From Acidimicrobiales bacterium (GTDB lineage Bacteria > Actinomycetota > Acidimicrobiia > Acidimicrobiales > Bog-793), in the NCBI GenBank assembly GCA_050744865.1, contig JBOGHW010000059.1:15895-79894 (forward strand): 64,000 nucleotides of DNA. Reading direction: 5' to 3'. The translations under genes and the position numbers were made by a program. Below are positions 3,563 through 34,922 of the stretch, piece after piece; the first letter of the stretch is position 1, and every line of letters starts with the position of its first letter. The notes below the pieces were generated by a model. The model worked only from the letters and a program-made list of their open reading frames with translations, had not been told where the DNA came from and did no database searches.

Positions 3563-3633
3563 GCGGCACCCAACAGAAAGCGGCCCGGCGGCAACGCCAG
3601 CGGGCGGCTCGGTGGCGCCGAGGAGCCAGAGGC

Positions 3634-4755: not shown

Positions 4756-6647
4756 GACTCCTCCGCCCCGGTTGGCACGGTCGGGCTGTACTCCGCTGAT
4801 CGCCCAGGGCTGCTAGCGCCGGCTAGCCCGGCGGCGGTCTGCGGTGGGCTGCTGGCGCCGGCTGGCCCGGCTGGCCCGGCTGGCCCAGCGGCGGGAGGCG
4901 GCGGGCTGGCCCCGAGGGCAACCTCGAGTGCCCATCTGTAGTCCGGCTTGCCCGCCGGCGACCGGACGAGCTTGTCCACGACATGCAGCTCTCGGGGCAC
5001 TTTGTAGCCGGCGATCCGTGATCGGCAGTGCTCCTGCAGCGACTCCAGCTGCGGCGCCGCGCCTGGACGGGGCTCGACTACGGCCGAGACCCGCTGCCCC
5101 CAGCGCTCGTCCGGCACGCCGACAATGGTGGCGTCGTACACGTCGGGATGCGCCTTCACGGCCGCTTCGACCTCCTCGGGAAACACCTTCTCGCCGCCCG
5201 TATTGATCGACACCGATCCCCGCCCGAGGAGCGAGATCCGGCCGTCGCCCTCGAGCATGGCGAGGTCACCGGTCACGACGTAGCGGACGTCCTCGACCTC
5301 GATGAACACCTCGGCGGTCTTGACAGGATCCTTGTAGTAGCCGATCGGTATGTTGCCGGACCTGGCGAGACGTCCGATCTCGCCCGTGCCCGGCGGGAGC
5401 GGGCGGAGCTCGGAGTCCAGCACGACCGAGTCGGTGACCGCCTGCACCGTTGGCCCGCCCCGCATCGCCGTCTCGCCGGGCTTCAGGATCACGACGCCGT
5501 TGGCGCCACCCTCTGAAGACCCGATGGCGTCTGTCATTATCAGGTTCGGGAAGTGGCCGAAGAATGCCTCTTTGACATCGGGCGAGAACACTGCTGCCGT
5601 CGACGAGAGGCTGATCAACTGCGAGGTGTCGTAGGACTGGCCGGTTGCGGCCTGCCTCTCGTACTCCTCGACGAGTGGGCGCGCCATGGCGTCGCCTGTC
5701 ATCATCAACGAGTTCACACCCAGCTCCCCCACGAGGCGCCATACGTCGGCAGGGTGGAACTTGTCGACCAGCACCACGCGGTTGCCCTGGAAACTCTGCC
5801 CCATGACGCCCCACTGCGTGGCGCCGTGCATGAGGGGCGCTATCGGGAAGAACGTGATCTGGAAGTTGGCAGCAACCCCCTTTTCAGCCAAGCCTTGCGG
5901 CGTCCGGATCTGGACGTTCGTCAGTGGGTCGATGCCACCGCCCAGGGCGAACAGGACGTCCTCGTGGCGCCAAACGACACCCTTGGGAAGCCCCGTCGTA
6001 CCGCCTGTGAACAGGATGTAGCGGTCATCGCCAGAGCGCGGGCCGAAGTCGCGCTCGGGCGACTGCGCCGCCAGTGCCGTCTCGTACTGCTCTACTGTCA
6101 CGTCGCCGAAGCCAAGCTCGCGGTTCGTGCCGGCACCCGAACCGGGGTCGCCGCCCGACTCGGCACCCGAACCGGGGTGGCCACCCGACTCGACGCCCGA
6201 GCCGCATCCCGCATCGGCGCCCTCGGCCGTGCCGTCGTCGATGACGAGCACGTGATGCATCATGGGCAGCGAGCCGGCACAGGATGCCACGGCCTTGGCG
6301 AACTGGCGATCGACCACCATGGCCACCACGTCGGACGAGGCGAAAAGGTAGCGAAGCTCCTCTTCGACGTAGCGGTAGTTGATGTTGATCCACACCGCTC
6401 GCAGCTTGAAGACTGCCCAGAGAGTCTCGACCCACTCGGTTCGGTTGTAGCCGTAGATGCCTACATGGTCACCGGGGCCGACGCCGCGGGCCGCAAGGTG
6501 GTGCGCCAGGCGGTTGGCGCGGTTGTCCATCTCGGCGTAGGTGCGGCGCTGCCCGCCGGCCACGAGGTACTCGCGCTCGGCAAAGACGTCGGCGGCGTGC
6601 TCGAAGAGGTCTGCCAGGTTGTACTCCACCGGCGATAAGTAGAACAT
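4752..6647 (-). CDS. acyl-CoA synthetase (AMP-forming, FadD-like) with Gly/Ser-rich internal insertion and Pro/Ala/Gly-rich C-terminal tail
   Basis: AMP-binding motifs FTGGTTGLPKGV, GYYKDP, TGDLAM, INTGGEKVFP; ORF track start 6797 trimmed to ATG 6647 (MFYLSPVEYNLADLFEH) because the upstream 50 codons cross the divergent promoter region. Confidence 0.9.
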   Translation of the reverse strand: MFYLSPVEYNLADLFEHAADVFAEREYLVAGGQRRTYAEMDNRANRLAHHLAARGVGPGDHVGIYGYNRTEWVETLWAVFKLRAVWININYRYVEEELRYLFASSDVVAMVVDRQFAKAVASCAGSLPMMHHVLVIDDGTAEGADAGCGSGVESGGHPGSGAESGGDPGSGAGTNRELGFGDVTVEQYETALAAQSPERDFGPRSGDDRYILFTGGTTGLPKGVVWRHEDVLFALGGGIDPLTNVQIRTPQGLAEKGVAANFQITFFPIAPLMHGATQWGVMGQSFQGNRVVLVDKFHPADVWRLVGELGVNSLMMTGDAMARPLVEEYERQAATGQSYDTSQLISLSSTAAVFSPDVKEAFFGHFPNLIMTDAIGSSEGGANGVVILKPGETAMRGGPTVQAVTDSVVLDSELRPLPPGTGEIGRLARSGNIPIGYYKDPVKTAEVFIEVEDVRYVVTGDLAMLEGDGRISLLGRGSVSINTGGEKVFPEEVEAAVKAHPDVYDATIVGVPDERWGQRVSAVVEPRPGAAPQLESLQEHCRSRIAGYKVPRELHVVDKLVRSPAGKPDYRWALEVALGASPPPPAAGPAGPAGPAGASSPPQTAAGLAGASSPGRSAEYSPTVPTGAEES

Positions 6648-6720: not shown

Positions 6721-7836
6721 ATGCCGGTACCACTCGACGAGTACCCGCTCCACCAGGTCCCCCTCTCCATGCAGTACGCGGCCACGAGCGACCGCAACTG
6801 CTACGACCGTTGCTACGTCAATGCTCAAGACAGGACGGGCAGGCTGTTCGTGGTGACCGGGCTCGGCGTCTACCCGAACCTCGGGGTGACCGACGCCTAC
6901 CTGACGATCATGCGCGACGGCCACCAGTCGACGCTCAGACTGTCCGACGCCCTCGGGCCGGACCGCATGAACCAGGCCGTCGGCCCTTACCGGATCGAGG
7001 TCCTCGAACCTTTGCGGCAGTTGCGCCTCATTTGCGAGCCAGGCGCACATGGCATCGGTGCTGACATAACTTGGACGGGTTCGTTCCCCGTGCTCGATGA
7101 GCCGCTTCACACCGTGCGCTCGGGAGGGCGTGTCATCGTCGACGGAGCCAGGTTCGCTCAAGTCGGAACCGTTGGCGGCATTGTCCACCTGGACGGAGCG
7201 GACCTGGCACTCGACCCCGCCGTCGCAGTCGGGACCCGCGACAGGTCGTGGGGGATCCGTCCCGTCGGCGGGCCGGAGCCGGCAGGACGGGGGACATCCG
7301 AACCGATGGAGGGGTTCGGGTTCTGGTGGGTTTACGCGCCGCTTCGTTTCGAGGAGTTCGCAATCGTCCTCATCGCCCAGGAGGACGGCGCCGGCACCCG
7401 CACGACCGCCGAGGCGACGCGGGTCTGGCCCGAGTCGTCGGGTCGGGTGCCAGAACAGCTCGGCTGGGCCGACTTCGCCATCCGCTACCAGCCGGGTAGC
7501 CGCATGCCGGCCGGTGCGACAGTCACCATCTCCAAGCGGGGGGCTCCCCTCGTCATCGAGATCGACACACTGGGCCATGTCTTGCTGAACGCCGGCCCGG
7601 GGTACCCGGGCGACCCCGACTGGTCGCACGGCCAGTGGCTCGGCCGCGGCTTTGCCGGCCGGGTCGACGTCGATCTAGGCGACCCGGCGCTGGCCGGGCA
7701 ACGGGCCGTCGGCGTTGTGGACCATGTCTGCCGAGCGACTTGCCAAGGCCAGACCGGATTCGGTTTGTTCGAGCACGCCACCTTCGGTGCCCACCTTCCC
7801 TCAGGCTTCGCTGATTGGGACAGCGTGGCGCCATGA
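6721..7836 (+). CDS. conserved-looking hypothetical protein
   Basis: ORF 6646..7836 trimmed to ATG 6721 (GGAAGGGA upstream); 371 aa, no motif recognised; stop overlaps next start (ATGA 7833..7836). Confidence 0.7.
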   Translation: MPVPLDEYPLHQVPLSMQYAATSDRNCYDRCYVNAQDRTGRLFVVTGLGVYPNLGVTDAYLTIMRDGHQSTLRLSDALGPDRMNQAVGPYRIEVLEPLRQLRLICEPGAHGIGADITWTGSFPVLDEPLHTVRSGGRVIVDGARFAQVGTVGGIVHLDGADLALDPAVAVGTRDRSWGIRPVGGPEPAGRGTSEPMEGFGFWWVYAPLRFEEFAIVLIAQEDGAGTRTTAEATRVWPESSGRVPEQLGWADFAIRYQPGSRMPAGATVTISKRGAPLVIEIDTLGHVLLNAGPGYPGDPDWSHGQWLGRGFAGRVDVDLGDPALAGQRAVGVVDHVCRATCQGQTGFGLFEHATFGAHLPSGFADWDSVAP

Positions 7837-8972
7837 CCTCGGGCGGACCGGAGGGCGAGAGCCGCACCACACATGGGCTGCAGTCGTCGACTCGCGACCC
7901 TGAGGAGCTGCGCCAGGCACTCGAGACATGGTTCCGCTCGGACGACCCGACCGCCCGCGTCACCTCGCTCGAAGTGCCCGAGCACACAGGGATGTCGAGC
8001 CTCTCGGTGATGCTCGACCTCGCCGGTGACTCCCTCCCCCGCCCGGAGCGGCTCGTAGCGCGCCTGGCGCCGGACACCGAGGCCGTGCCGGTGTTCCCTT
8101 CCTACGACCTCGAGGCGCAGTACCTCGTGCTCGAGCATCTCGGCCGCAGCTCGGCGGTGCCGGTGCCCCGCCTGCGCAAGCTGGAGCTGGACCCCAGGCA
8201 TGCCGGCGCGCCCTTCTTCGTCATGGACCGCGTCGAAGGGCTGATACCGCCCGACGTAATGCCATACGTGTTCGGCTCCTGGCTCAGCGAGGCGAGCCGC
8301 CCCGACCAGCGCCGCCTGCAGGACGGCGCCCTGCAAGCGCTGGCGGCAGTGCACTCGGTCCCTCTAACCGCTGGTTTGGCGTCTCGCCTTGCCTTCGAAC
8401 AGCCGGGGGCCACCGCCCTCCATCGGCACGTCGCCTCGCAGCGTGCCTACTACGAGTGGTGCGCCTCGGATGGGGTGAGGGCATCGGTGCTGGAGGATTG
8501 TTTCGGATGGTTGGAGGACAACTGGCCGGCGCCAGAAGCCGAGGCAACGCTCAGCTGGGGCGACGCCCGCATCGGCAACATGGTCTTTCGCGACTTCCAG
8601 CCGGTCGCCCTCCTCGACTGGGAGATGGCAGGCTTGGCTCCCCCGCAGGTGGACCTCGGCTGGATGGTCTACCTGCACCGCTGGTTCGATGACCTGGCCG
8701 TGACGTTCGGGATCGAGCCGATGAGCCACTTCATGCGCCTAGACGACGCCGTGGCCACCTATGAGGCAGCCAGCGGCGAGACGGTCGGCGACATGGTCTG
8801 GTACCTCTTCTACGCAGCGCTGCGGCAAGGCATCGTGATGTTCCGCATCGCCCGGCGCCCGATCGCCTTCGGCCAGGCCGCCATGCCCGACGATCCGAAC
8901 GACCTCGTCATGCACCGGGCGACGCTGGAGGCGATGCTAAGCGGGGAGTACTGGGCGAGCTTCGGGTTGTGA
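7833..8972 (+). CDS. phosphotransferase family protein (APH/choline-kinase-like fold)
   Basis: WGDARIGNMVF (catalytic loop D....N) and LLDWEMAG (metal-binding D) typical of APH-fold kinases; ATG 7833 coupled to upstream stop. Confidence 0.85.
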   Translation: MTSGGPEGESRTTHGLQSSTRDPEELRQALETWFRSDDPTARVTSLEVPEHTGMSSLSVMLDLAGDSLPRPERLVARLAPDTEAVPVFPSYDLEAQYLVLEHLGRSSAVPVPRLRKLELDPRHAGAPFFVMDRVEGLIPPDVMPYVFGSWLSEASRPDQRRLQDGALQALAAVHSVPLTAGLASRLAFEQPGATALHRHVASQRAYYEWCASDGVRASVLEDCFGWLEDNWPAPEAEATLSWGDARIGNMVFRDFQPVALLDWEMAGLAPPQVDLGWMVYLHRWFDDLAVTFGIEPMSHFMRLDDAVATYEAASGETVGDMVWYLFYAALRQGIVMFRIARRPIAFGQAAMPDDPNDLVMHRATLEAMLSGEYWASFGL

Positions 8973-9552
8973 CGGCGCCGCGCCGGAGGCGATCAGTCGC
9001 CAGGCCGGCGACGAAGGCCTCCTGTTCGCTCGTCTCGACTGCGTCGGTGCAGTAGTTGGCTCTGACCCAGGCCACCGCCTCGGCCGCGGGAAGCCCGCCG
9101 AGCACTGACAGGCACGCCAGCGCCGTCCCGGTTCGCCCGTGGCCGCCAAGGCATCCCAACTCGACTCGTTGCCCAGCTCGAGCCCGGCCGAGCGCGCCCG
9201 TCAGCCCCACGACGGTGCCGGTGACGTCGGCGGGGACGCCGAAGTCCGGCCAGTCGAGGTGCGCGTGTGCCCACGGCGGTTGCCACGCACGATCGAGGTA
9301 GAGCCCATAGTCGGGTGGGCGCTCACGCCTGTACGGGTCAGCATCGTCGAAGGAGGCAGCGTTGACTTCGGTCCCGTCGGGCAAGACCACGGTCGATAGA
9401 TGCCGATGCACTTCGAGCTCCTGGTGGCCGTGCGCGGGGTCAGCACACTTGGCCGGAACCGCGTTGCTGTACCAGTGCACCTGGCACTCGTTGCAGACCA
9501 CTACCAGGCGTGTCTCGGTGCTCACTTGCCCATCGCCCGGCACGGTCGGCAA
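8908..9552 (-). CDS. protein tyrosine/dual-specificity phosphatase with N-terminal Cys/His-rich segment
   Basis: 214 aa; WPD-loop-like LDWPDFGVP and P-loop CLGGHGRTG (C-x5-R-T); N-terminal CNECQ...CADPAHGH; 3' end overlaps convergent APH gene by 65 nt. Confidence 0.7.
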   Translation of the reverse strand: MPTVPGDGQVSTETRLVVVCNECQVHWYSNAVPAKCADPAHGHQELEVHRHLSTVVLPDGTEVNAASFDDADPYRRERPPDYGLYLDRAWQPPWAHAHLDWPDFGVPADVTGTVVGLTGALGRARAGQRVELGCLGGHGRTGTALACLSVLGGLPAAEAVAWVRANYCTDAVETSEQEAFVAGLATDRLRRGAVTTRSSPSTPRLASPPASPGA

Positions 9553-9738
9553 TCAGGATCGCGGTCGGTGACCAGCGTCAGCTGCCGATCGCGCGAGACA
9601 CCGGCACGGGTGCCACCCATAGCTGCACATCGTACGACCCGAACACTCCGGCTAGATGACGGGGGCGGTCTGGCTCGTGTTGCTTTGGTCGGCTTCGGTT
9701 TGGTCAGCACCAAGCTCCTCGGCACTAGGTTCGGCGAC

Positions 9739-10536
9739 ATGTGCGGGCGCTTCGTAGCGAGCAGGCCGGTGGAGGACGTCGCTTCGATCTTCGAGATCGA
9801 GGACATCGACGTGCCCGAGGAGCTTGCGCTGCCTCGCTGGAACATCGCCCCGCAGGCCGGCGTGCTCGCTGTGCGGACTCGGCTCTTGAGGCCAGACGGT
9901 TCCGATGACGGCGCTCCGCTAGAGCCTCGCCGCGGACTGACCGACTTCCGGTGGGGACTGGTGCCCTCCTGGGCCAAACAAGCCAGCGTGGGGACTCGGT
10001 CCATCAACGCCCGTGCCGAGACCGTGCTCGACAGGCCCGCCTTTCGCACAGCGTTGGCCAAGCGGCGCTGCATCATCCCGGCGGACGCCTTCTACGAGTG
10101 GAGGCGCAACGGTTCGCTCCGCGAGCCGTGGTGCTACACGATGTCGAGCGGCGAGATCCTCGCCTTCGCCGGCCTCTACGAGGTCTGGCGCCCGAAGGCC
10201 GCCGGCGGGCAGGACGGCGGTCCCGGTTGGCACGATGACTGGCTGCTCACCTGCACGATCATCACCACCGATGCCAACGGCGACGTGGCCCCTGTCCACG
10301 ACCGGATGCCGGTGTTCCTCGACAAGCTTGACTGGGCGGGATGGCTCGACCCGGCTCCGCTCGGATCGGACGACCTGGCTCACCTCCTGCGCCCCGCTCC
10401 GGACGGCGTCCTGCGGGCCTACCAGGTCTCGACGGCCGTCAACAGCGCCCGGCTCGATGGACCCGAGTTGGTGGAGCCGCTCGAGCCCGGTGGTGGTGTG
10501 GGCGGCGAGCAGGCCGCCCTGTTCCCCGCTGGATAG
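9739..10536 (+). CDS. SOS response-associated peptidase (SRAP/YedK, DUF159)
   Basis: ORF 9400..10536 trimmed to ATG 9739: MCGRF N-terminus (catalytic Cys2), WNIAPQ, FRWGLVPSWAK, INARAET, IIPADAFYEW. Confidence 0.9.
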   Translation: MCGRFVASRPVEDVASIFEIEDIDVPEELALPRWNIAPQAGVLAVRTRLLRPDGSDDGAPLEPRRGLTDFRWGLVPSWAKQASVGTRSINARAETVLDRPAFRTALAKRRCIIPADAFYEWRRNGSLREPWCYTMSSGEILAFAGLYEVWRPKAAGGQDGGPGWHDDWLLTCTIITTDANGDVAPVHDRMPVFLDKLDWAGWLDPAPLGSDDLAHLLRPAPDGVLRAYQVSTAVNSARLDGPELVEPLEPGGGVGGEQAALFPAG

Positions 10537-10574
10537 CCATAGCGGGTGGTCGGGGCGTCGGGGGGTGCCGTCCG

Positions 10575-10691
10575 GGCGTCGGGTATCCGGCCGGCGAGGC
10601 GTCGGGGTATCCGGCGGGCGAGGCGTCGGGGTATCCGGCCGGCGAGGCGTCGGGGTATCCGGCCGGGCGAGGCGTCGGGGTATCCGGCCGG
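10575..10691. repeat. 24-nt tandem repeat (minisatellite), 4 full + 1 partial copies
   Basis: Units GGCGTCGGGGTATCCGGCCGGCGA at 10575, 10598, 10622, 10646, 10671 (23-25 nt, 1-2 variants each); intergenic between SRAP stop and dxs stop. Confidence 0.85.
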
Positions 10692-10706
10692 AATCCGGGC
10701 ACCCGA

Positions 10707-10741
10707 GGACATTTTCGCCTCCTAGGCAGGTGAAAATGTCC
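10707..10741. terminator. AT-rich hairpin with perfect 10-bp stem (possible bidirectional terminator) between convergent genes
   Basis: GGACATTTTC (10707..10716) / GAAAATGTCC (10732..10741) are exact reverse complements; 15-nt loop containing CCTAGG; no U-tract. Confidence 0.35.
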
Positions 10742-10760
10742 CCGGGCTTCGAGCTTCCCA

Positions 10761-10893
10761 CCTCCTGCCAGCCCGACGTCCTCCCCACCGCACGTCCTGC
10801 CAGCCCGACATCCTCCCCAGCCCCAGGTTCTGCCAACCCACGTCCTGCCAGCTCCACGTCCTGCCAACCCGACGCCCTGCCAGGTATCCCGAC
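10761..10893. repeat. ~16-nt degenerate tandem repeat, about 8 units
   Basis: Units resembling GTCCTGCCAGCCCGAC starting near 10763, 10779, 10795, 10811, 10828, 10843, 10859, 10875 (spacing 15-17 nt). Confidence 0.6.
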
Positions 10894-10899
10894 CGCTGG

Positions 10900-12903
10900 T
10901 CAGCCACCCGATGAGGACAGCAGCCCCCGCCGCCGCGCCGCCGCCCTCACGGAGCCGGCGATGCCAGCCGCGTCAAGGCCGAGCCGGGTGAGGATCGCCT
11001 CCGGCTTGGCATGTTTCACGTAGGCAGTCGGCACACCGAGCACGGTGTATAACGGACCGGCGCCCGGCGTAGCACCCGAGGCTGCCACCAAGTCCGTCTG
11101 GGCACACAAGTACGAGCCCGCCCCTCCGTGAGCAAGGCCGTCCTCGGCCGTCACGACAAGGCTCGCAGCGGCCGTCAGATCCAGCAGTCCCGGGTCGGCC
11201 GGCCGGATCACGCGGGGATCGATCACGGTCACATCGAGACCATCGTCCTCGAGCATCGCGGCCGCCCCGAGGCACGCCCTGGCTAGCTTGCCGATGCCGA
11301 CGAGGACGATCGACGGATCTCCTTCTCGCAGGCAGCGATAGCCCATCCCGGTCCCAACCGGAGCCAGCGGGCCGGGCGAGGCCGTCTTGGGGTAACGCAC
11401 GAGCGCCGGCCCACCCCACTGCAGAGCCGAGTCCAGGGCGGGCCCGACCTCTGCCGGCTCCGACGGGGCGAACACGGCGACACCGGGGATCTGCAGCGCC
11501 TGCACCATGTCGTAGAGGCCGTGGTGGGACGGTCCGTCGTCACCGGTGATCCCGGCACGGTCGGCGGCCACCACGACGGGAAGCCTGTGCAAGCCGACGT
11601 CGAGGTTCCACTGGTCGAAAGCCCGTGACACGAACGTCGAGTAGATGGCTGCGACGGGGCGCAACCCTTGCATCGCCATTCCTGCCGCCGCCGTCAAAGC
11701 ATGCTGCTCGGCGATCCCGACATCAAAGAAGCGCTCTGGAAAGTGATCCTCGAACGACAACAACCCCAACGGCCCGGGCATGGCAGCGGTAATGGCGACG
11801 ATGCGCTCGTCGGCCTCCGCGGCCGCCAGCAACGACTTGGAGAAGGCATCGGTATAGCTGTCGCCAACGGGCGACGGCGGAGCCACTCCGCCGGCGTCGT
11901 CGGTCAGAGCCCCGACCCGCGGAAGAGAGACGGCCTGGTGCGTCTCGGACTCGTTCGGGGTGGGTGGCGTGACCTTGTAGTCGTGGAGCTTCTGGATCTC
12001 GTCCGCCTCGGCGGGTCCGTAGCCTTTGCCCTTCTTAGTCAGCACGTGCAACACGATGGGGCCGTGCCAGGCCGACGCCCGCCGCATCGCCTGCTCGAGC
12101 GCCCCGATGTCGTGGCCGTCGAGCGGGCCGGTGTAGCGCACCCCGAGCGACTCGAAGAACACGTGCGGCTCGACTACCTCACGCAGGGCCGAGGTGACAC
12201 CGTGGATCGATGCGTAGGCGACCGAGCTGACCGAGGCCGGCAGGTCCCGGAGAACGTGACGCAGCCGTTCGCGTACCTGCACGTACCGAGGGTCGAGACG
12301 AAGGTGAGTCAGGGAGTGCGACAGCCGCGAGATCGTTGGGGCGTAACTGCGACCGTTGTCGTTGAGGACGATAAGCACCCGCGAACCCGAGTGGCCGAGA
12401 TTGTTGAGAGCCTCGTAGGCCAAGCCACCGGTGAGTGCGCCGTCACCGACGACAGCCACGACCCGGCGATCGCCGGCCTCGGGGTGAGCGGCCGCCTCTA
12501 GGCGCATGGCGGAGGCAATGCCATGTGCGTACGACATGGCGGTCGAAGCATGCGAGTTCTCGATCACGTCGTGGCTCGACTCGGCACGGTTCGGGTAGCC
12601 GCTCAAGCCGCCTTCCCGCTTCAACTTCTGAAAGCCGCTCTGCCGTCCCGTCAGCAGTTTGTGCGTGTAGGCCTGGTGGCCTGTGTCGAACAGCAGGACG
12701 TCGCGAGGCGAATCGAAGACCCGGTGCAGGGCTATCGTCAGCTCGACGGCTCCGAGATTCGAACCAAGGTGGCCGCCGTTGCGAATGACGGCCTCGATGA
12801 GGAAGTCACGGACCTCGGCGGCCAGAACGTCGCACTCGGCCAGCGAGAGCGCCTTCACGTCGCCAGGGCTATGGATACGGTCGAGGATCATGGGGTCTTT
12901 CAC
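10900..12903 (-). CDS. dxs: 1-deoxy-D-xylulose-5-phosphate synthase
   Basis: 667 aa; GGHLGSNLGAVELTIALH, FDTGHQAYTHKLLTGR, VVGDGALTGGLAYEALNN (ThDP-binding). Confidence 0.95.
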   Translation of the reverse strand: MKDPMILDRIHSPGDVKALSLAECDVLAAEVRDFLIEAVIRNGGHLGSNLGAVELTIALHRVFDSPRDVLLFDTGHQAYTHKLLTGRQSGFQKLKREGGLSGYPNRAESSHDVIENSHASTAMSYAHGIASAMRLEAAAHPEAGDRRVVAVVGDGALTGGLAYEALNNLGHSGSRVLIVLNDNGRSYAPTISRLSHSLTHLRLDPRYVQVRERLRHVLRDLPASVSSVAYASIHGVTSALREVVEPHVFFESLGVRYTGPLDGHDIGALEQAMRRASAWHGPIVLHVLTKKGKGYGPAEADEIQKLHDYKVTPPTPNESETHQAVSLPRVGALTDDAGGVAPPSPVGDSYTDAFSKSLLAAAEADERIVAITAAMPGPLGLLSFEDHFPERFFDVGIAEQHALTAAAGMAMQGLRPVAAIYSTFVSRAFDQWNLDVGLHRLPVVVAADRAGITGDDGPSHHGLYDMVQALQIPGVAVFAPSEPAEVGPALDSALQWGGPALVRYPKTASPGPLAPVGTGMGYRCLREGDPSIVLVGIGKLARACLGAAAMLEDDGLDVTVIDPRVIRPADPGLLDLTAAASLVVTAEDGLAHGGAGSYLCAQTDLVAASGATPGAGPLYTVLGVPTAYVKHAKPEAILTRLGLDAAGIAGSVRAAARRRGLLSSSGG

Positions 12904-16629: not shown

Positions 16630-18191
16630 GCCGCACACCCCCTCGTGCCGAGAACGCCACGGCGTCCGGCACGAAGCTCGAGCGCAGCGGCAGCCGCTTC
16701 GGCCGTTACCGGGCCGTCGCACCCGCTCAGGTCAGACAGGGTCCTGGCGACTCGCCGCACGCGGTCGAGGCCACGGGCGGTGATCTCGCTGCGCTCGAGC
16801 CTGCGCAGGAGCAGGCTCTTGGCATCAGGCTGCAACGGGGCGATCTCCTCCAGCCGGTCGGCGGGAATGGCGGCATTGCACTTCACCCCGCGGGCCGACG
16901 CCAGGCTCCTCGCCGCGGCGACACGACCCGCCACTGTCTCGCTGCTCTCGCCGGTTCCGATGCCGAACAGCTCCTTGGTGCTGAGCCGGCTGACTGGCAC
17001 ATGCAGATCGAAGCGATCCAACAGCGGCCCGGACAACCGCCTTTTGTACCTGTCGATCTGGGCGGACGAGCACAGGCAGGGCGCATTCCCGCCGCCGTCC
17101 CCGCACGGGCAGGGATTCATGGCACCGACGAACAAGAACCTCGCGGGCAGCTCGACGGTGGCCCGCGCCCTGGCGACGCGGACGACGCCTTCCTCCAGCG
17201 GTTGTCGCAAGCAGTCGAGGACCGAGCCGGCGAACTCGGGCAACTCGTCGAGGAAGAGCACGCCGTTCGTCGCCAGGCTCACCTCGCCCGGCCGCAGCCA
17301 GGCCGAACCGCCGCCCAGGAGAGCGACGGCCGACGCCGTGTGATGAGGAGCCCGAAACGGTGCCTCCCCCGCCAATACCCTGCCTGGCAACGGCAGACCT
17401 GCAGCGGAGTAGATGCGGCAAGTCTCGATGATCGACTCCCGGTCGAGAGGCGGAAGGATCCCCGCCAGGCGCTCGACCAGCATTGTCTTTCCCGAGCCAG
17501 GCGGGCCAGAGAGGAGAAGGTGATGCCCTCCGGCGGCGGCCACCTCCAGCGCCCGCCGGCCGACTACCTGGCCACGAACGGAGGCGAGATCGAGGCTCGC
17601 CCGCCGCCGGTCGGTGTCCCCACCCCCCAGGTCACGCACGGTGCGGACCCCGGAGACGCCGGCGCCGCTTTCGTAACTTGGCCACGGCGCATGGCCCCGC
17701 AGGGCGTCGACCATCTCGCGCAACGTCCGGGCAGTGCGCACGGCGGGCCCGCCGACGAGGAGGGCCTCTTCGACGCTCTCCCAGGGAACGCCAACCACGG
17801 CTGTGCCTACGACGGACACGATGGGCAGTATCCCGGGCACTGGCCGAATGGCCCCGTCCAGGCCCAGCTCCCCGACGAAGCCGTGGTCTCGGACGGCCTC
17901 CGGGTCCAAGTCGGCCGTGGCCACGAGGACGCCGACAGCTATGGGTAGATCGAGCCCCGCACCGGCCTTGCGCACGCCCGACGGGGCAAGGTTGACGGTG
18001 ACCTTCCTCATGGGCCAGGTGAGCCCGCTCGACATGAGGGCGGCCCTTACCCTGTCGCGGGCCTCGCGGCAAGCGGTGTCCGGCAGCCCGACGATGGTAA
18101 AGCCGGGGAGGCCGTTGCTGACATGCACTTCCACGACGATGCTGCGGCCTTCCGCACCATGCAGAGTGGCTGAAGGAATGGCGGCGATCAC
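16626..18191 (-). CDS. comM: Mg-chelatase-like AAA ATPase (YifB/ComM family)
   Basis: 521 aa; N-terminal Lon-like VVEVHVSNGLPGFTIVGLPD, Walker A LLLSGPPGSGKTML, GVLFLDELPEF. Confidence 0.9.
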   Translation of the reverse strand: MIAAIPSATLHGAEGRSIVVEVHVSNGLPGFTIVGLPDTACREARDRVRAALMSSGLTWPMRKVTVNLAPSGVRKAGAGLDLPIAVGVLVATADLDPEAVRDHGFVGELGLDGAIRPVPGILPIVSVVGTAVVGVPWESVEEALLVGGPAVRTARTLREMVDALRGHAPWPSYESGAGVSGVRTVRDLGGGDTDRRRASLDLASVRGQVVGRRALEVAAAGGHHLLLSGPPGSGKTMLVERLAGILPPLDRESIIETCRIYSAAGLPLPGRVLAGEAPFRAPHHTASAVALLGGGSAWLRPGEVSLATNGVLFLDELPEFAGSVLDCLRQPLEEGVVRVARARATVELPARFLFVGAMNPCPCGDGGGNAPCLCSSAQIDRYKRRLSGPLLDRFDLHVPVSRLSTKELFGIGTGESSETVAGRVAAARSLASARGVKCNAAIPADRLEEIAPLQPDAKSLLLRRLERSEITARGLDRVRRVARTLSDLSGCDGPVTAEAAAAALELRAGRRGVLGTRGCAA

Positions 18192-30107: not shown

Positions 30108-30801
30108 TCGGCGCCTGCGCGAGGGACTGCAGGGCCTCCTCGGCAGCATGCCGTTCGGCGTCCTTCTTGGTATTCCCCGTCCCCGAACCCACGTTCTCGC
30201 CGTTGACGACGACAGACGCCAGGAACCTCTTGGCGTGGTCTGGCCCGCTCTCGCTCATGAGGTAGCTCGGCGACCCGAAGCCTCGCTGCGCCACCAGCTC
30301 CTGCAGGCGGTTCTTCGGGTCTCCGTATCTGGCCTCGCCGGCGATGGCGGTCACATGGTCCTCCAGGAGGCCGAGCACCCAGTCCCGCGCGCCTTGGCTG
30401 CCCGCCGAGAGGTAGACGGCGCCGATCACGGCTTCGAGGCAGTCCGCCAGGATCGACGCCTTGTGGCGTCCACCAGACACTTCCTCACCCTTGCCCAACA
30501 GGATCGCCGAGCCGAGCCCGAGCGTGTCTGCCAACGGGGCCAGAGCTACGGTGCTGACGGCCGCAGCCTTCACCCGGGCTAGGTCCCCCTCGGACAGGTC
30601 CGGGTAAGCGGAGAACAGGTAGTCCGTGATGACGAGCCCGAGGACGGCGTCGCCCAGCAGCTCCAGGCGTTCGTTCGACGGCTGGCCAGGATTCTCGGCG
30701 CAGTAAGACCGGTGAGCCAAGGCGTGCCGGAGCAGCTCGGCGGAGATGTGGTAGCCAGCCAGGCGCTCGGCCAGGTCGGCGGCCGGCACCTCGCGATCCA
30801 C
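30091..30801 (-). CDS. rnc: ribonuclease III
   Basis: ERLELLGDAVLGLVITDYLF signature plus C-terminal dsRBD. Confidence 0.9.
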   Translation of the reverse strand: MDREVPAADLAERLAGYHISAELLRHALAHRSYCAENPGQPSNERLELLGDAVLGLVITDYLFSAYPDLSEGDLARVKAAAVSTVALAPLADTLGLGSAILLGKGEEVSGGRHKASILADCLEAVIGAVYLSAGSQGARDWVLGLLEDHVTAIAGEARYGDPKNRLQELVAQRGFGSPSYLMSESGPDHAKRFLASVVVNGENVGSGTGNTKKDAERHAAEEALQSLAQAPSARTT

Positions 30802-30805
30802 CGGG

Positions 30806-31081
30806 TCAGCTTCCGATCTTGGCCGTGACGTAGTCGACAGCGTCGCGAACCGTGCGGAGGTCCTCGAGATCTTCGTCGTCGATCCGGAAGCCGCTCACGC
30901 GGTCGGCCAGCTCCTCCTCCAGCGCCTCGACGAGCTCGATGAGAGCCAGGGAGTCAGCCTCGAGGTCGTCGGCGAAGGACGAAGACTCCTCGATGCCTGA
31001 CGCGTCAATCTCGAGGATCTCGGCCAGCTGGTTGCGAACAATCTCCAGCACTTCGCTTCGGGAGACTGGTGTCTCGGCCAC
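30806..31081 (-). CDS. acpP: acyl carrier protein
   Basis: C-terminal part of ORF 30806..31441 from GTG 31081 (GAAGGAG 6 nt upstream); FADDLEADSLALIELV with DSL phosphopantetheine site. Confidence 0.9.
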   Translation of the reverse strand: MAETPVSRSEVLEIVRNQLAEILEIDASGIEESSSFADDLEADSLALIELVEALEEELADRVSGFRIDDEDLEDLRTVRDAVDYVTAKIGS

Positions 31082-31360
31082 GTCGGGCTCCTTCGTCTTG
31101 TCGTATCGGCCAGGCGGGCAGCTGTGCCCGATCGAGCGCCCGGTACATCGAGCGCCAAGTACAATAGGCGGCATGTCGCGTCGCACACATCCCGTGGCGC
31201 GATTTCCGCGCCCCCTGGCCCTATTCGGGCCTGCCAGGGTGCGCGCCACTTGCTTCGTCGGCTGACGGGCGCCCCATGAGGGCAGGGCCGGGGGCTGGGG
31301 GGTTGAGACCTCACCACCTCGACCATGGCGAACACGCCACCTTGACCCGAAGGAGCCACG

Positions 31361-32533
31361 ATGCAACGCACTTTGACTGCGCTCGAGCTCGAGCGCGACC
31401 TGGCAATCCGCGACCTCACCGATCCTGCCGCCGGTCCTCACGGCCTCCAGCTGCTCGTCGACCGTCTGGCCGCTGCCCTGGCCGGCACATGGGGCAGCTC
31501 GATCCTCGTCTGTCGAGGGGACAGGGAGGTGACGGTGAAGGCGAATTACGACGAGCTGGGTTTCTCAGGCGACGTCGTCACGCGCGACGCCCGCTACACC
31601 AGATACGTCACACCAGCCACGATGCTGAGGAGCCACACGACGGCGATCGTCCCTGGAGCCCTCCGCCGGCTGGCCGACCTGGGGGATGGCGCCCCGCTCG
31701 ACGTCCTGCTCATCTGCCCCGGGATTTGCTACCGGCGCGACGCCATCGGCCGCTGGCATACCGGTACACCTCATCAGCTCGACGTCTGGCGCCTGGTGCG
31801 GCGGCCCGGCGGACCCGCCATGCAGGCCACGGACCTCACCGAGCTCGTCGGGGCCCTCTGCCGCGTGCTCGTTCCCGGGCAGCCTTGGCGCCTCGAGCCG
31901 CGGGTACACCCCTACACCGAGCAAGGCCAACAGGTGGACGTCGAGTGGGACGGCGCTTGGATAGAAGTCGCCGAGTGCGGGCTCGCCCGTCCCGCCGTGC
32001 TGCGGCGCGCCGGCCTGGCGGCTGGCTGGTCGGGGCTGGCGCTCGGGATGGGCCTCGACAGGCTCTACATGCTCACCAAAGGCATCCCCGACATCCGCCT
32101 CCTACGCTCGAACGACCCGAGAGTGGCCCGCCAGATGGCGGATCTGGCGCCCTACAGGTCGATCTCGGCCATGCCGGCGATCTCGCGGGATCTGTCGGTG
32201 GCAGTGGACGAATCCGACCTGACCGAGGATCTGGGCGACCGCGTCCGCGACGCCCTTGGTCTCGACGCCGACTATGTCGAAGAGGTCAGCATCATGTCCT
32301 CGACGCAGTACGACGACCTGCCGCCGGCTGCCAGGGAGCGCCTGGGCATCGGTTCAGGCCAAGTCAACGTCCTGGTGCGGGTGGTGCTGCGGGCGCTCGA
32401 CCGCACGCTCGACGACGCCGAGGCCAACGAGCTGCGAGACCGTATCTATGCCGCCGTGCACCAAGGCTCTGTGCATACCTGGGCCGGCACCGGGGACGTG
32501 GGTAGCACTGGTGCGACCGATGGCGTCGGGTAG
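31361..32533 (+). CDS. PheRS-alpha-like class II aminoacyl-tRNA synthetase core fused to a C-terminal FDX-ACB-like domain (monomeric, mitochondrial-type architecture)
   Basis: 390 aa; motif-2-like LLICPGICYRRDAIGRWHTGTPHQLDVW, motif-3-like GWSGLALGMGLDRLYMLTKGIPDIRLL, C-terminal PYRSISAMPAISRDLSVAV...VLVRVVLRALDRTLDDAEANELRDRIYAAV; RBS GAAGGAG. Confidence 0.75.
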   Translation: MQRTLTALELERDLAIRDLTDPAAGPHGLQLLVDRLAAALAGTWGSSILVCRGDREVTVKANYDELGFSGDVVTRDARYTRYVTPATMLRSHTTAIVPGALRRLADLGDGAPLDVLLICPGICYRRDAIGRWHTGTPHQLDVWRLVRRPGGPAMQATDLTELVGALCRVLVPGQPWRLEPRVHPYTEQGQQVDVEWDGAWIEVAECGLARPAVLRRAGLAAGWSGLALGMGLDRLYMLTKGIPDIRLLRSNDPRVARQMADLAPYRSISAMPAISRDLSVAVDESDLTEDLGDRVRDALGLDADYVEEVSIMSSTQYDDLPPAARERLGIGSGQVNVLVRVVLRALDRTLDDAEANELRDRIYAAVHQGSVHTWAGTGDVGSTGATDGVG

Positions 32534-32594
32534 TGGCGCCCGCCCGACTCTCCCACCCTGTCGGCTTGCCATCGGGACCTGCCGACACGCTCCC

Positions 32595-33629
32595 TCAGAC
32601 AGCCCCGTCGGACGCGACGGCCGCAGCCAGTTTGGCGGACAGATCGCGCCCGGCCATGTCGTGGCCCGCACGCACGGCGTTGAAGATCGCCCGGGACGTC
32701 GAGGAGCCGTGGCTGATGATGCAGACCCCCTTCAGCCCGAGCAGCATCGCGCCGCCTGTGTTCTCGGGGTCGAGCGGTTCGGCTCTCCGCAGCAGCGTCG
32801 GCAGCAGGATCTCCGAAGCGGCCTTGCACTCGGGGCTATCCCCGAAGACCTCGAAGAGGATCGTCATGAAGGACCTGAGAGCCCCTTCGAGCGTCTTCAG
32901 GGCGACGTTGCCGGTGAAGCCGTCGGTGACGATGACCTGGACGCCGCCTGCCAGCAGATCGCGCCCCTCGGCGTTGCCGACGAACTCGAACGGGTTCGCC
33001 TCCGTCGAGGCGCCGGCGGCCAGAAGGGAGTGAACTTCCTTGGTGAGCGCGTTGCCCTTCGAGGACTCCTCGCCTATCGACAAAGTTGCGACCCGCGGCC
33101 GCTCCAGGCCGTAGCGCTCCCGGTAGAAGGCAGCTCCCATCTGGGCGAATTGCACGAGCCACTCCGGCTGGCAGTCGGAGTTGGCACCAGCGTCCAGCAG
33201 GACCGATGGCGAGTCTCCGAGGGCAGGCAAGGGCGTGGCGATACAAGGCCGGGCCACGCCGGGCAACCGTCCCATGCGAAGCAGGGCGCTTGCCATCGTG
33301 GCGCCGGTGTTGCCTGCGCTGACCATGGCACAGGCCCGCCCGTCGCGGACCGCCTCGGCGGCTCGGACCAAGGTCGAGTCCTTCTTCGTGCGGACTCCTC
33401 TGGCGGCGTCGTCTTCCATTCCGATCACCTCGGACGCCGGGATCAGCTCAAGGCCCCCGAGGTCGCCGAGAGAACCGTCGTCTGGCCCGACGAGAACCAC
33501 GGGGATGCCGATCTCCTCGGACGCCCGGATGGCGCCGGCGACTATCTCGCCCGGTGCCTTGTCCCCGCCCATGGCGTCGACGGCTACGGGGAGGCCCCCT
33601 GGCGCGGCCTCAGCTGTCGGTGGGGTCAA
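32595..33629 (-). CDS. plsX: phosphate acyltransferase PlsX
   Basis: VAVDAMGGDKAPGEIV near N-terminus; ORF track start 33746 overlaps rpmF; TTG 33629 overlapping rpmF stop (TTGA) proposed, start uncertain. Confidence 0.9.
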   Translation of the reverse strand: MTPPTAEAAPGGLPVAVDAMGGDKAPGEIVAGAIRASEEIGIPVVLVGPDDGSLGDLGGLELIPASEVIGMEDDAARGVRTKKDSTLVRAAEAVRDGRACAMVSAGNTGATMASALLRMGRLPGVARPCIATPLPALGDSPSVLLDAGANSDCQPEWLVQFAQMGAAFYRERYGLERPRVATLSIGEESSKGNALTKEVHSLLAAGASTEANPFEFVGNAEGRDLLAGGVQVIVTDGFTGNVALKTLEGALRSFMTILFEVFGDSPECKAASEILLPTLLRRAEPLDPENTGGAMLLGLKGVCIISHGSSTSRAIFNAVRAGHDMAGRDLSAKLAAAVASDGAV

Positions 33630-33837: not shown

Positions 33838-34332
33838 CTAGGTTGCTACATCTGATCCGTTGTGCTCGAGCCGAACCGCGCACGAGCATGCCTCGTTGTT
33901 GCGGTTCACTCCGCACTCCGGGCAAAGACCCTGGCAGGCCTCTCGGCACAGCGGCGCCAACGGCAGCTCAAGGATACAGGCATCGTGGACTATCGGTTCC
34001 AGGTCCAGCCAGTCCGGTTCGACACCATAGCCGAGCTCAGGGTCGGGATGGTCCAGGCAGACCTCGCGGACGGCCACCACCAGCTCCCCGCTCGCCTCTT
34101 CCAGGCACCGACGGCACTCGCCTTCGTAACGTGCCTGCGCCGTCCCGTCGACGACGACTCCGCCGACAGTCGACGTCACTTTGCCCTTGAAGGACACGGC
34201 GGATTCGTCGGGGACCCGGGCATAGGTGATCGCCATGCCGGGCAGGGGTGCGTGTATCTCCACTTCCCTGGCCGATCCCGAGTGCCTCCTGAGAGCGCCC
34301 ACGGGCACGAGCCAGGCCCTGGCCGGGCTCAC
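33838..34332 (-). CDS. YceD/DUF177 family protein
   Basis: CRRCLEE...CREACQGLCPECG; conserved position upstream of rpmF; GTG 34332 overlapping upstream stop (GTGA) proposed, start uncertain. Confidence 0.8.
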   Translation of the reverse strand: MSPARAWLVPVGALRRHSGSAREVEIHAPLPGMAITYARVPDESAVSFKGKVTSTVGGVVVDGTAQARYEGECRRCLEEASGELVVAVREVCLDHPDPELGYGVEPDWLDLEPIVHDACILELPLAPLCREACQGLCPECGVNRNNEACSCAVRLEHNGSDVAT

Positions 34333-34922
34333 TCCTCGTCCTGGTCGAAGAAGCCCTCCGCCTCCCTCGCCTGGCCCTCGAACCATTCCTCGGCTTCCTG
34401 GTCCACGTCCGGCCCGTCGGCGGGCACCGAGGCGAGCCGTTCACGCCCGGCCCGCACGGTCTTGGTGGTGCGATCGAGCACGATCTCGAAGGCAGCCAGC
34501 TTCTGGTCGATGTAGTCATCGGCTTCGTGGCGCATCCGCCGGCACTCCGCCTCGGCATCCTCGACCAGCCGCACGGCGCGGTGCTCGGCCTGCCGCACGA
34601 TCTCGGTCCGCTGCACCATTCGCTCGGCGTGGACACGAGCGTCTTCGATGATCTCGGTCGCTTCCCTCCGGGCGGCGGCGAGCACGTCCTCACGATCCTT
34701 GAGCAGGCGGCGGGCGCGGCGAAGCTCCTCGGGAAACTCGTCGCGAGCCGCTTCCACCAAGTCGAGGACTTCTTCTCTTGGAATCAGGACCGAGGACGAC
34801 AGGGGCATCGACTTGGCCGACGACACGATGTCGATCAACTCGTCGAGAACACCTTCGACACCGCCGGCAGCCAGCGACTCTCCTTCAGTGCCCTCAGGGT
34901 CGACGTAGGTGGTGTCGCTCAC
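34329..34922 (-). CDS. coiled-coil DivIVA-like protein (positional equivalent of mycobacterial Rv2927c/SepIVA)
   Basis: 197 aa, highly charged heptad-like sequence; position between coaD and DUF177 as in mycobacteria; GTG overlaps coaD stop (GTGA). Confidence 0.7.
   Translation of the reverse strand: MSDTTYVDPEGTEGESLAAGGVEGVLDELIDIVSSAKSMPLSSSVLIPREEVLDLVEAARDEFPEELRRARRLLKDREDVLAAARREATEIIEDARVHAERMVQRTEIVRQAEHRAVRLVEDAEAECRRMRHEADDYIDQKLAAFEIVLDRTTKTVRAGRERLASVPADGPDVDQEAEEWFEGQAREAEGFFDQDEE

Follow-up and report, generated by a model that had tools for sequence, protein, structure and literature searches.

SrmL, a single-chain PheRS-like protein encoded between acpP and plsX in an Acidimicrobiales genome, and its relatives in bacteria, plasmids and huge phages

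The srmL gene and its family

The window analysed here is the whole 64,000-nucleotide stretch of contig JBOGHW010000059.1 (positions 15,895 to 79,894 of the forward strand) from an Acidimicrobiales bacterium, and the gene in question, srmL, is located in it between acpP and plsX (Table 1). The neighbouring genes follow one another on the minus strand in the order smc, mutM, rnc, acpP, plsX, rpmF, yceD, a gene for a 197-aa protein, coaD, rsmD and recG, and srmL, on the plus strand, separates acpP from plsX. The gene map thus confirms the description, given in an earlier note on this DNA, of a gene on the opposite strand within an otherwise collinear housekeeping array. The srmL open reading frame (ORF) is the maximal one of its frame, homologues align with its product from residue 1 of the N-terminus, and the protein is identical to ACRD0Z_11500, which NCBI lists for a metagenome-assembled genome (MAG) of an Acidimicrobiales bacterium as a "hypothetical protein". 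Because its GC content at third codon positions (GC3, 0.83) equals that of its neighbours (0.82-0.85), srmL is a long-resident gene here. Neither pheT nor pheS was found within 10 kb on either side of srmL, the 64-kb window contains no second PheS-like ORF and no canonical pheS/pheT, and a tRNA scan of the window found no tRNA gene.

The order acpP, srmL, plsX is seen in the source organism and otherwise only in a single relative with an SrmL of 72% identity, and it is absent at approx. 160 other srmL loci; in a 67%-identical relative and in other Acidimicrobiia, srmL is sited elsewhere in the genome. Adjacency to acpP is likewise limited to two related genomes among approx. 170 loci examined. 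Since this order is not conserved outside the source organism and one relative, the placement of srmL between acpP and plsX is a lineage-specific accident without a functional link to lipid synthesis, and the position of the gene in a fatty-acid/ribosome housekeeping array carries no demonstrated functional meaning. The earlier proposal that the gene "occupies the fabD/fabG position" therefore amounts to a positional coincidence.

On every feature tested, the window protein is a member of the SrmL family. It scores 496.3 bits against the NCBIfam model NF051887, "PheS-related mystery ligase SrmL" (cut-off 300), and the match spans model positions 1-349 of 349 and protein residues 16-369. Residue conservation, here and below, was counted over 197 full-length SrmL members, 158-197 of which keep the signature residues of the family. 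These residues (RYTRY, YRRD...PHQxDxW, HPYT, ECG and LPxxAxxRLG...QKN) are present in the window protein with one exception, the lysine of QKN being Val (Q334-V335-N336). The models of phenylalanyl-tRNA synthetase (PheRS) give much lower scores: bacterial PheS (TIGR00468) reaches 90.5 bits (cut-off 237.45), with only model positions 150-322 matched; mitochondrial PheRS (TIGR00469) reaches 122.4 bits (cut-off 258.35), in two stretches; and archaeal PheS reaches 66 bits (cut-off 350). Because these scores lie below the curated cut-offs and several defining residues are missing, the protein is judged from its sequence to belong neither to the bacterial PheS nor to the mitochondrial PheRS family, which supports the earlier opinion that it is not a canonical PheS. 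The novelty that had been attached to it does not hold at the level of the family, as NF051887 already names SrmL and many RefSeq and UniRef homologues carry that name. A well-described bacterial family of known function had been considered as something that would remove the novelty; the family is indeed widely annotated, but without a known function. Thus, the window gene is a newly seen member of a catalogued but uncharacterised family and is ordinary for that family, nothing except its acpP/plsX placement setting the protein apart from NF051887. The sole PHROG match of SrmL is an unannotated PheS-like family, and no PADLOC match links it to anti-phage defence.

Table 1. Features of the srmL locus in the window and of the translation island that surrounds one huge-phage copy (L182)
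Sequence	Feature	Position	Strand	Remarks
Window	srmL coding sequence	31361..32533	+	390 aa plus stop; ATG start; ORF list and NF051887 match
Window	Class IIc catalytic core, residues 58-259	31532..32137	+	Pfam tRNA-synt_2d, E = 4.5e-30; HMMER, Foldseek
Window	GDVVTRDARYTRY, residues 70-82	31568..31606	+	Replaces the PheS xDHP(A/S)Rxx(Q)DTFY element; HMMER alignments
Window	Motif 2 region LLICPGICYRRDAIGRWHTGTPHQLDVW, residues 116-143	31706..31789	+	Y124-R125-R126-D127...H133...P137-H138-Q139-L-D141-V-W143
Window	H183-P-Y185-T186	31907..31918	+	Replaces the F-P-F-T/V wall of the amino-acid pocket; aligned to FFPFTEPS (M. tuberculosis) and YFPFTHPS (human mitochondrial)
Window	Motif 3 region GWSGLALGMGLDRLYMLTKGIPDIRLL, residues 222-248	32024..32104	+	GLALGMGLDR234...K240...D244-I-R; aligned to PheS GFAFGMGLER
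Window	C-terminal FDX-ACB domain, residues 269-367	32165..32461	+	Pfam PF03147, E = 1.1e-6
Window	SrmL-specific insert Y317DDLPPAARERLG329	32309..32347	+	FDX-ACB beta2-beta3 loop; predicted short helix 322-328
Window	acpP-srmL divergent intergenic region	31082..31360	.	Conserved non-coding block ~31195-31275; TACAAT hexamer 31160-31165
Window	acpP (91 aa)	30806..31081	-	Upstream divergent neighbour; Pfam PP-binding; context only
Window	plsX (325 aa as called)	32595..33572	-	Convergent downstream neighbour; Pfam FA_synthesis; context only
L182	LysRS-like gene	3256-4464
L182	TrpRS-like gene	5520-6242
L182	SerRS gene	7151-8422
L182	Receiver-domain protein gene	8449-8910
L182	HisRS-like gene, N-terminal half	9357-9992
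L182	SrmL gene	10001-11101
L182	AlaRS-like fragment	17186-17908
L182	TyrRS gene	18573-19652

Fold, active site and anticodon-binding loop

Earlier reading of the protein as a PheS-like class II core joined in one chain to a C-terminal ferredoxin-fold anticodon-binding (FDX-ACB) domain, as in mitochondrial PheRS, is upheld by Pfam, AlphaFold, Foldseek and profile comparisons alike. The quoted motif 2 and motif 3 strings and the C-terminal segment beginning PYRSISAMPAISRDLSVAV are present, the profile search that had been proposed finds both domains (Table 1), and HMMER aligns the core to M. tuberculosis PheS and to human mitochondrial PheRS. It should be noted that the Pfam score of the FDX-ACB domain (29.5 bits) is slightly below the gathering score of 31.1 and that a PDB search with this segment alone gave no match, the domain being detected only by the family profile. 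The assignment is settled because a profile of diverse SrmL members matches the C-terminal domain of PheT (P. aeruginosa, E = 3e-6; T. thermophilus, E = 1.6e-4) and mitochondrial PheRS over its full length (155 bits, compared with at most 130 bits on bacterial PheS). An AlphaFold2 model built from 27 homologues has a mean predicted local distance difference test score (pLDDT) of 89.3 and a predicted template modelling score (pTM) of 0.84. Its C-terminal secondary structure (strands 274-283, 306-316 and 334-343; helices 291-305, 322-328 and 352-366) gives the topology beta-alpha-beta-(helix)-beta-alpha over residues 274-366. When this model was compared with the PDB using Foldseek, the top match was human mitochondrial PheRS (E = 1e-26, template modelling (TM) score 0.71-0.75, approx. 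385-410 columns, 22-23% identity), whose closed form 3CMQ superposes better than the tRNA-bound open form 3TUP, whereas only the catalytic half was matched by bacterial PheS chains. The single-chain architecture of core plus FDX-ACB is confirmed because a confident model matches mitochondrial PheRS over its full length. The chain has no PheT subunit, no editing domain and no PheS N-terminal coiled coil.

Within the catalytic core, the class II ATP-binding arginines of motifs 2 and 3, R125 and R234, are invariant (197/197). The same two motifs hold further residues under strong constraint, namely H133 (182), Q139 (187) and W143 (194) in motif 2, and A227 (185), K240 (196) and D244 (196) in motif 3. 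In T. thermophilus PheRS, H133, Q139 and A227 correspond to what we take to be His212, Gln218 and Ala314; the numbering used for that enzyme comes from the cited source only for Phe258, Phe260, Val261 and Val286, and the remaining numbers (these three as well as His178, Ser180, Phe216 and Glu220) are given as we presume them to be. Constraint of this kind is what an active class II site typically shows.

The wall of the amino-acid pocket has been remodelled in a consistent manner: Phe258 is replaced by H183 in 184 members and Phe260 by Y185 in 192, and T186 stands for Val261/Thr in 179. Such an H-P-Y wall is compatible with phenylalanine because genuine eukaryotic cytosolic PheRS has Asn in place of Phe258 and Tyr in place of Phe260 (PMC3275996). 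The HP(A/S)R element is also altered, as the earlier note had pointed out. Here, GDVVTRDARYTRY of the window protein aligns with ADHPARGEQDTFY in the PheS of M. tuberculosis and with ADHPSRKKGDNYY in the human mitochondrial enzyme, so that V72-V73-T74-R75 occupies the HP(A/S)R site. Across the family, Ser180 of HPSR is represented by Thr or Ser at position 74 in 148 of 197 members (115 Thr, 33 Ser), the following Arg is kept as R75 in 166, and DTFY gives way to R78-Y-T-R81-Y (R78 in 159, Y79 in 160, T80 in 172 and R81 in 162). It had been proposed that the altered motif points to altered substrate handling or a non-canonical role. By itself it is no argument for a non-canonical substrate, as the change from Ser to Thr is conservative, the Arg is kept, the H-P-Y wall resembles the Asn/Tyr of cytosolic PheRS, and phage copies of the gene adjoin tRNA-Phe.

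The C-terminal domain contains an SrmL-specific insert (Table 1) with conserved L320 (171), P321 (173), A324 (164), R327 (178) and G329 (176), which occupies the loop where PheT and mitochondrial PheRS hold the residues that read G34. Human mitochondrial PheRS reads G34 via Asp364, Phe366, Ser375 and Arg414, of which Asp364 is essential, the D364G variant being inactive (PMC7540514). Because the G34 readers Asp364, Phe366 and Ser375 are not kept in SrmL, and a conserved inserted helix is found instead, anticodon reading by SrmL, if there is any, would by this alignment not be done in the canonical manner.

Among known systems, mitochondrial PheRS (FARS2; 3CMQ, 3TUP) resembles SrmL in architecture: both are single chains with a class IIc core and an FDX-ACB domain and without an editing domain, an architecture described for the mitochondrial enzyme in PMC3275996, and both have the local motifs YRRDxID, GEWLEVxxCG and IPDIRL. 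SrmL differs from it in that HPSR has become xxTR, FPF has become HPY, the motif 2 Phe has become Pro and GCG has become ECG, and in that an insertion of approx. 40 residues after motif 2 is absent. Moreover, the mitochondrial enzyme is organellar, whereas SrmL is bacterial, plasmid-borne or phage-borne. Bacterial PheS (M. tuberculosis 7DAW, E. coli 3PCO) has a homologous core, with motifs 2 and 3 and a pocket floor of Thr and Ala (presumably equivalent to T251 and A294 of E. coli PheS) that are found in SrmL too. However, its N-terminal coiled-coil arm is missing from SrmL, no pheT partner is located within 10 kb of srmL, and SrmL has in its own chain the anticodon-binding domain which in bacteria forms the end of PheT. 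SepRS and PylRS are more distant homologues of the class IIc core (profile E = 1e-9 to 1e-6) with different accessory domains and pockets, and SrmL is much closer to PheRS. The stand-alone accessory relatives of synthetases (EpmA/PoxA, GluQRS, HisZ and amino acid:carrier-protein ligases) bear only a conceptual likeness to SrmL; none of them is known to derive from PheRS or to have an anticodon-binding domain of the PheRS type.

Distribution and linkage to tRNA-Phe in huge phages

A pattern scan of 185,579 species representatives, with one genome per species, found srmL in at least 392 of them, mostly in Actinomycetota and sporadically. Carriers include Kitasatospora, some Streptomyces, Amycolatopsis, Nocardia, Actinocrinis and Acidimicrobiales, as well as one Longimicrobium MAG. 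Among representatives of 50%-identity clusters, 212 clusters are matched at E <= 1e-30, and full-length members extend down to approx. 31% identity and include a protein of the gammaproteobacterium Saccharospirillum mangrovi. A second large clade was noted in metagenome contigs (L102-L181) of high GC content (0.60-0.76) from soil, whose members are 42-49% identical to an AT-rich query; because this clade sits in soil contigs, SrmL appears to be common in soil bacteria beyond Actinomycetota. A distant subgroup (P0220, P0223 and P0227) has lost most of motif 2 (YRREG..HH.MDIW, without the xIDRxH segment) and retains a C-terminal domain with the LPxxAxxRLG...QKN signature; judging from these residues, its members may be degenerate or non-catalytic derivatives.

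The gene is also found on plasmids, where its products are annotated as "hypothetical protein". In the Glutamicibacter nicotianae plasmid pGnB68 (L192), from a strain isolated from pharmaceutical-factory sludge, srmL is directly downstream of a Cmx/CmrA chloramphenicol efflux gene. A 308-kb plasmid of Azotobacter chroococcum (L193) carries it amid IS630 and IS3 transposases, an HNH endonuclease and a VapBC pair, and a Corynebacterium diphtheriae plasmid (OV884290.1) has a partial copy encoding 56% of the protein. Clustering of flanking ORFs at 80 genome loci, and then at 82 more (80 metagenome loci plus L100 and L101), revealed no conserved operon partner: no family is present at more than 17 loci, none is consistently adjacent, and the recurrence of genes next to srmL reflects genus-level synteny only. 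At these loci, srmL has no linked target gene. As regards tRNA genes, ARAGORN found one distant tRNA at four of 60 genome loci, in three cases tRNA-Cys and in one tRNA-Pro, each over 3 kb from srmL. Of the 80 metagenome loci, three have a single stray tRNA, which is SeC(tca) in two cases and tRNA-Ala in the third.

A different picture emerges from viral DNA. Scans of IMG/VR, which were run with narrower family alignments, identified six viral contigs of 145-578 kb with SrmL homologues, and distant AT-rich members were found on ORFan-dense contigs. In addition, the 635-kb "uncultured phage" LR745206.1 (INPHARED) has a copy that is 66% identical to one of the IMG/VR homologues and is the only PheS-like locus in that phage. 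With scores of 380-452 bits, the four IMG/VR copies scanned, from contigs of 181-578 kb, as well as four AT-rich relatives exceed the SrmL cut-off, and the phage copies carry the family signature. The contigs classed as huge-phage DNA measure 415-578 kb. Four SrmL loci (L184, L187, L092 and L182) sit in tRNA arrays. At L184, srmL is flanked by the only two tRNA-Phe(GAA) genes among 25 tRNAs, one 213 bp upstream and the other 166 bp downstream; if the order in the array were random, the probability of such bracketing would be 1/300 (1/C(25,2)). At L187, in a phage related to that of L184, tRNA-Phe is 121 bp upstream of srmL, and at L092 tRNA-Phe accounts for 5 of the 14 tRNAs upstream of the gene. 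The tRNA-Phe genes of these phages are canonical, with a CUGAAAA loop and A73.

The clearest context is provided by L182 (IMG/VR UViG_3300049793_000366, 508 kb), in which positions 1-21098 form a 21-kb translation island with 28 tRNA genes and several synthetase genes (Table 1). Three tRNA-Lys genes precede the LysRS-like gene, tRNA-Ser genes precede that for SerRS, and the HisRS-like gene is immediately upstream of srmL. Several of the synthetases are shorter than their cellular counterparts. The tRNAs of the island include those for Lys, Trp, Ser, His, Ala and Tyr plus two tRNA-Phe, for which SrmL is the only synthetase-like gene left as a partner. Islands of this kind are in keeping with what is known of huge phages, which according to Al-Shayeb et al. 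(2020; PMC7162821) encode as many as 15 synthetases and 67 tRNAs; the main text of that paper makes no mention of PheRS or of the SrmL family. The phage SrmL copies sit in islands similar to those described there, whereas the window copy is chromosomal and belongs to Acidimicrobiales.

Some further features of the viral contigs were recorded. In L182, ARAGORN called, amid tRNA-His, tRNA-Trp and tRNA-Phe genes, a tRNA with the four-base anticodon "ggaa" and an enlarged anticodon loop (1838-1912; called Ser|Phe), which could be either a tRNA of the frameshift-suppressor type or a mis-call. In L186 (IMG/VR UViG_3300034072_000758, 517 kb; positions 8901-11152), a gene for a polynucleotide kinase-phosphatase of the RNA-repair type, with a PNKP HAD domain plus AAA_33, abuts the start of srmL, and genes for a family B DNA polymerase and a 5'-3' exonuclease are located upstream. 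The AT-rich or ORFan-dense contigs with SrmL homologues (L088/L089 with P0139, L087 with P0134, L101 with P0124, and L183) also carry HSP70, RNase T, R2K ATP-grasp, DUF4116 repeats and a GGDEF protein, and look like giant-virus or huge-phage DNA.

A possible second phenylalanyl-tRNA synthetase and rival explanations

The huge-phage copies beside tRNA-Phe suggest that SrmL is a compact second phenylalanyl-tRNA synthetase. Within this context, the explanation preferred here, which we hold tentatively and as plausible rather than probable, is that SrmL is an accessory, editing-free, single-chain tRNA ligase of the PheRS type. R125 of motif 2 and R234 of motif 3 would bind ATP, and an aminoacyl-adenylate of phenylalanine, or of a very close aromatic analogue, would be made in a pocket with H183 and Y185 as its walls and T186 and A227 as its floor. 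The hinge of the C-terminal domain would then open, as in mitochondrial PheRS, and the amino acid would be passed to tRNA-Phe. In cells, such a protein would be an accessory and horizontally mobile second enzyme that works alongside the essential (alpha-beta)2 PheRS, the pheS and pheT genes of which presumably coexist with srmL in the source genome, and in huge phages it would be the phage's own compact PheRS.

If SrmL does charge tRNA-Phe with phenylalanine, it would be the smallest bacterial PheRS and a natural editing-free source of Phe-tRNA, possibly also of Tyr- or meta-Tyr-tRNA-Phe. It would further become a candidate for a role in resistance or as a back-up enzyme, would offer genetic-code engineering a compact scaffold, and would bear on the origin of the mitochondrial enzyme. 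A review from 2010 regarded mitochondrial PheRS as the only known monomeric class II synthetase, bacteria using an (alpha-beta)2 enzyme (PMC3275996). With SrmL, a PheRS-derived enzyme made of one chain is seen to be widespread across bacteria, plasmids and huge phages, and the linkage of its phage copies to tRNA-Phe and synthetase islands turns the "mystery" label into a directly testable hypothesis of phenylalanine charging.

Several observations weigh against this explanation. At the active site, the His178 position of HPxR is occupied in SrmL by Val, Ala or Asp, and Glu220 is replaced by D141 in 192 of 197 members. The Phe of motif 2 that stacks on adenine, which we take to be Phe216 in T. 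thermophilus, has become P137 in 181 members and is Phe in only 6, W143 being a candidate for its replacement. Where PheS and mitochondrial PheRS have the first Gly of their "GCG" strand, 190 members have E205; because invariant glycines line the floor of the PheRS pocket (PMC3275996), E205 is a real caution. In the anticodon-binding loop, Asp364, Phe366 and Ser375 align to the variable positions Ser/Ala313, Thr315 and Asn336, in an alignment that is partly manual there on account of the insertion. Both PheRS equivalog models scored far below their cut-offs, the function of SrmL is labelled a mystery by the NCBI curators, and a search of the literature found neither work on the family nor any experiment on SrmL. 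The genomic evidence is uneven as well: cellular srmL loci lack a linked tRNA, no tRNA was found within 10 kb of srmL in L183, L185 and L186 or within 12 kb in LR745206.1, and the phage evidence comes from three or four lineages.

The main rival, which we regard as possible although less likely, is that SrmL is a true ligase in which the amino acid, the acceptor or both have diverged. Such an enzyme might use class II adenylation chemistry to activate an acid other than phenylalanine, e.g., a polar or charged aromatic one, and in place of the 3' end of tRNA-Phe its acceptor may be a different tRNA, a base within a tRNA or a protein. Precedents exist among synthetase paralogues, namely GluQRS, EpmA/PoxA and the amino acid:carrier-protein ligases. 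P137, E205, the extra R78 and R81 of RYTRY and the lost His of HPxR set SrmL apart from every PheRS. The replacement of the G34 readers, together with the conserved LPxxAxxRLG insert, the sub-threshold scores on both PheRS models, the accessory status of srmL in genomes that are expected to have a PheRS already, and the curators' label of "mystery ligase" point in the same direction. However, phage copies that adjoin canonical tRNA-Phe and ordinary synthetases would be odd for a mischarging or non-translational enzyme. Moreover, the pocket floor (T186 and A227) and the ligands of the amino group (Thr/Ser74, Q139 and D141) are PheRS-like, and no conserved partner, acceptor or biosynthetic gene is found at approx. 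160 loci. If SrmL does not charge tRNA-Phe, it represents new ligase chemistry on a PheRS scaffold.

A bolder reading, to which we give a rather low probability, takes one of two forms: SrmL either belongs to a self-sufficient, mobile lineage of monomeric PheRS, common to bacteria, plasmids and huge phages, from which the mitochondrial enzyme may trace its origin, or serves a new pair of amino acid and acceptor. In the former case, the view of mitochondrial PheRS as the only monomeric class II synthetase would be overturned, and SrmL would be the closest living relative of that enzyme and possibly its phage-type source, just as mitochondrial RNA polymerase and Twinkle have a phage ancestry. 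In the latter case, the new pair would be defined by the remodelled pocket (E205, H183, Y185 and P137) and by the anticodon-binding loop.

It is also conceivable, although improbable, that SrmL is a true PheRS which serves not bulk translation but as a specialised spare, for example as a decoy or resistant copy that counters PheRS inhibitors or toxins, or as a stress isoform. This would refine only the physiological role of the protein and not its chemistry, and it would account for the spread on plasmids and in phages. The plasmid copy beside the Cmx/CmrA efflux gene in a strain from pharmaceutical-factory sludge fits such a role, as do the other plasmid copies amid insertion sequence (IS) elements, an HNH endonuclease and a VapBC pair, and the sporadic occurrence in antibiotic-producing Actinomycetota. 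Duplicated, inhibitor-resistant synthetases are common in Streptomyces. Nonetheless, no link to a conserved biosynthetic or resistance cluster is seen at approx. 160 loci, PADLOC gives no match, and the window copy has a native codon composition and lies within a housekeeping array.

Very improbable is the proposal that SrmL is a pseudo-synthetase without catalytic activity, a regulator resembling HisZ that does no more than bind RNA or a small molecule. The loss of the adenine-stacking Phe, the altered pocket and the absence of motif 2 from the distant members P0220, P0223 and P0227 could be cited in its favour, but the active-site pattern described above, with both arginines invariant and Q139, D141, H133, K240 and D244 nearly so, counts against a non-catalytic regulator, and no gene for a partner enzyme is conserved. 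Finally, the idea that SrmL loads an amino or aromatic acid onto acyl carrier protein, or acts in lipid synthesis in place of fabD/fabG, is scarcely credible and was rejected: it draws on the divergent adjacency to acpP in the window and one relative and on an unusually conserved spacer, but this synteny is not conserved among approx. 170 loci, acpP is an ordinary housekeeping copy beside rnc, SrmL keeps an RNA-binding FDX-ACB domain, and the known amino acid:carrier-protein ligases are SerRS-like rather than PheRS-like.

The region upstream of srmL was also inspected. A T-box or other riboswitch was considered and rejected, since no Rfam match reached the gathering score in the window; at E values of up to 5, only chance-level matches were obtained in 30700-32800, and a scan of the acpP-srmL spacer for consensus promoters and terminators found none. 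The spacer itself is 82% identical in nucleotide sequence to its counterpart at L188, with one block above 90%, whereas the SrmL proteins are only 72% identical. The conserved block holds nested inverted repeats (CCCTGGCCC...GGGCC..GCCAGGG), and in RNA folding the spacer gives z = -2.2 for the plus strand and z = -0.6 for the minus strand. This block could be a leader of srmL or an upstream regulatory element of acpP. A minor observation concerns the gene between yceD and coaD (34329-34922, minus strand), the 197-aa product of which is acidic, probably coiled-coil and has only a weak ATP-synt_B Pfam match; the gene is conserved in the same place in L188.

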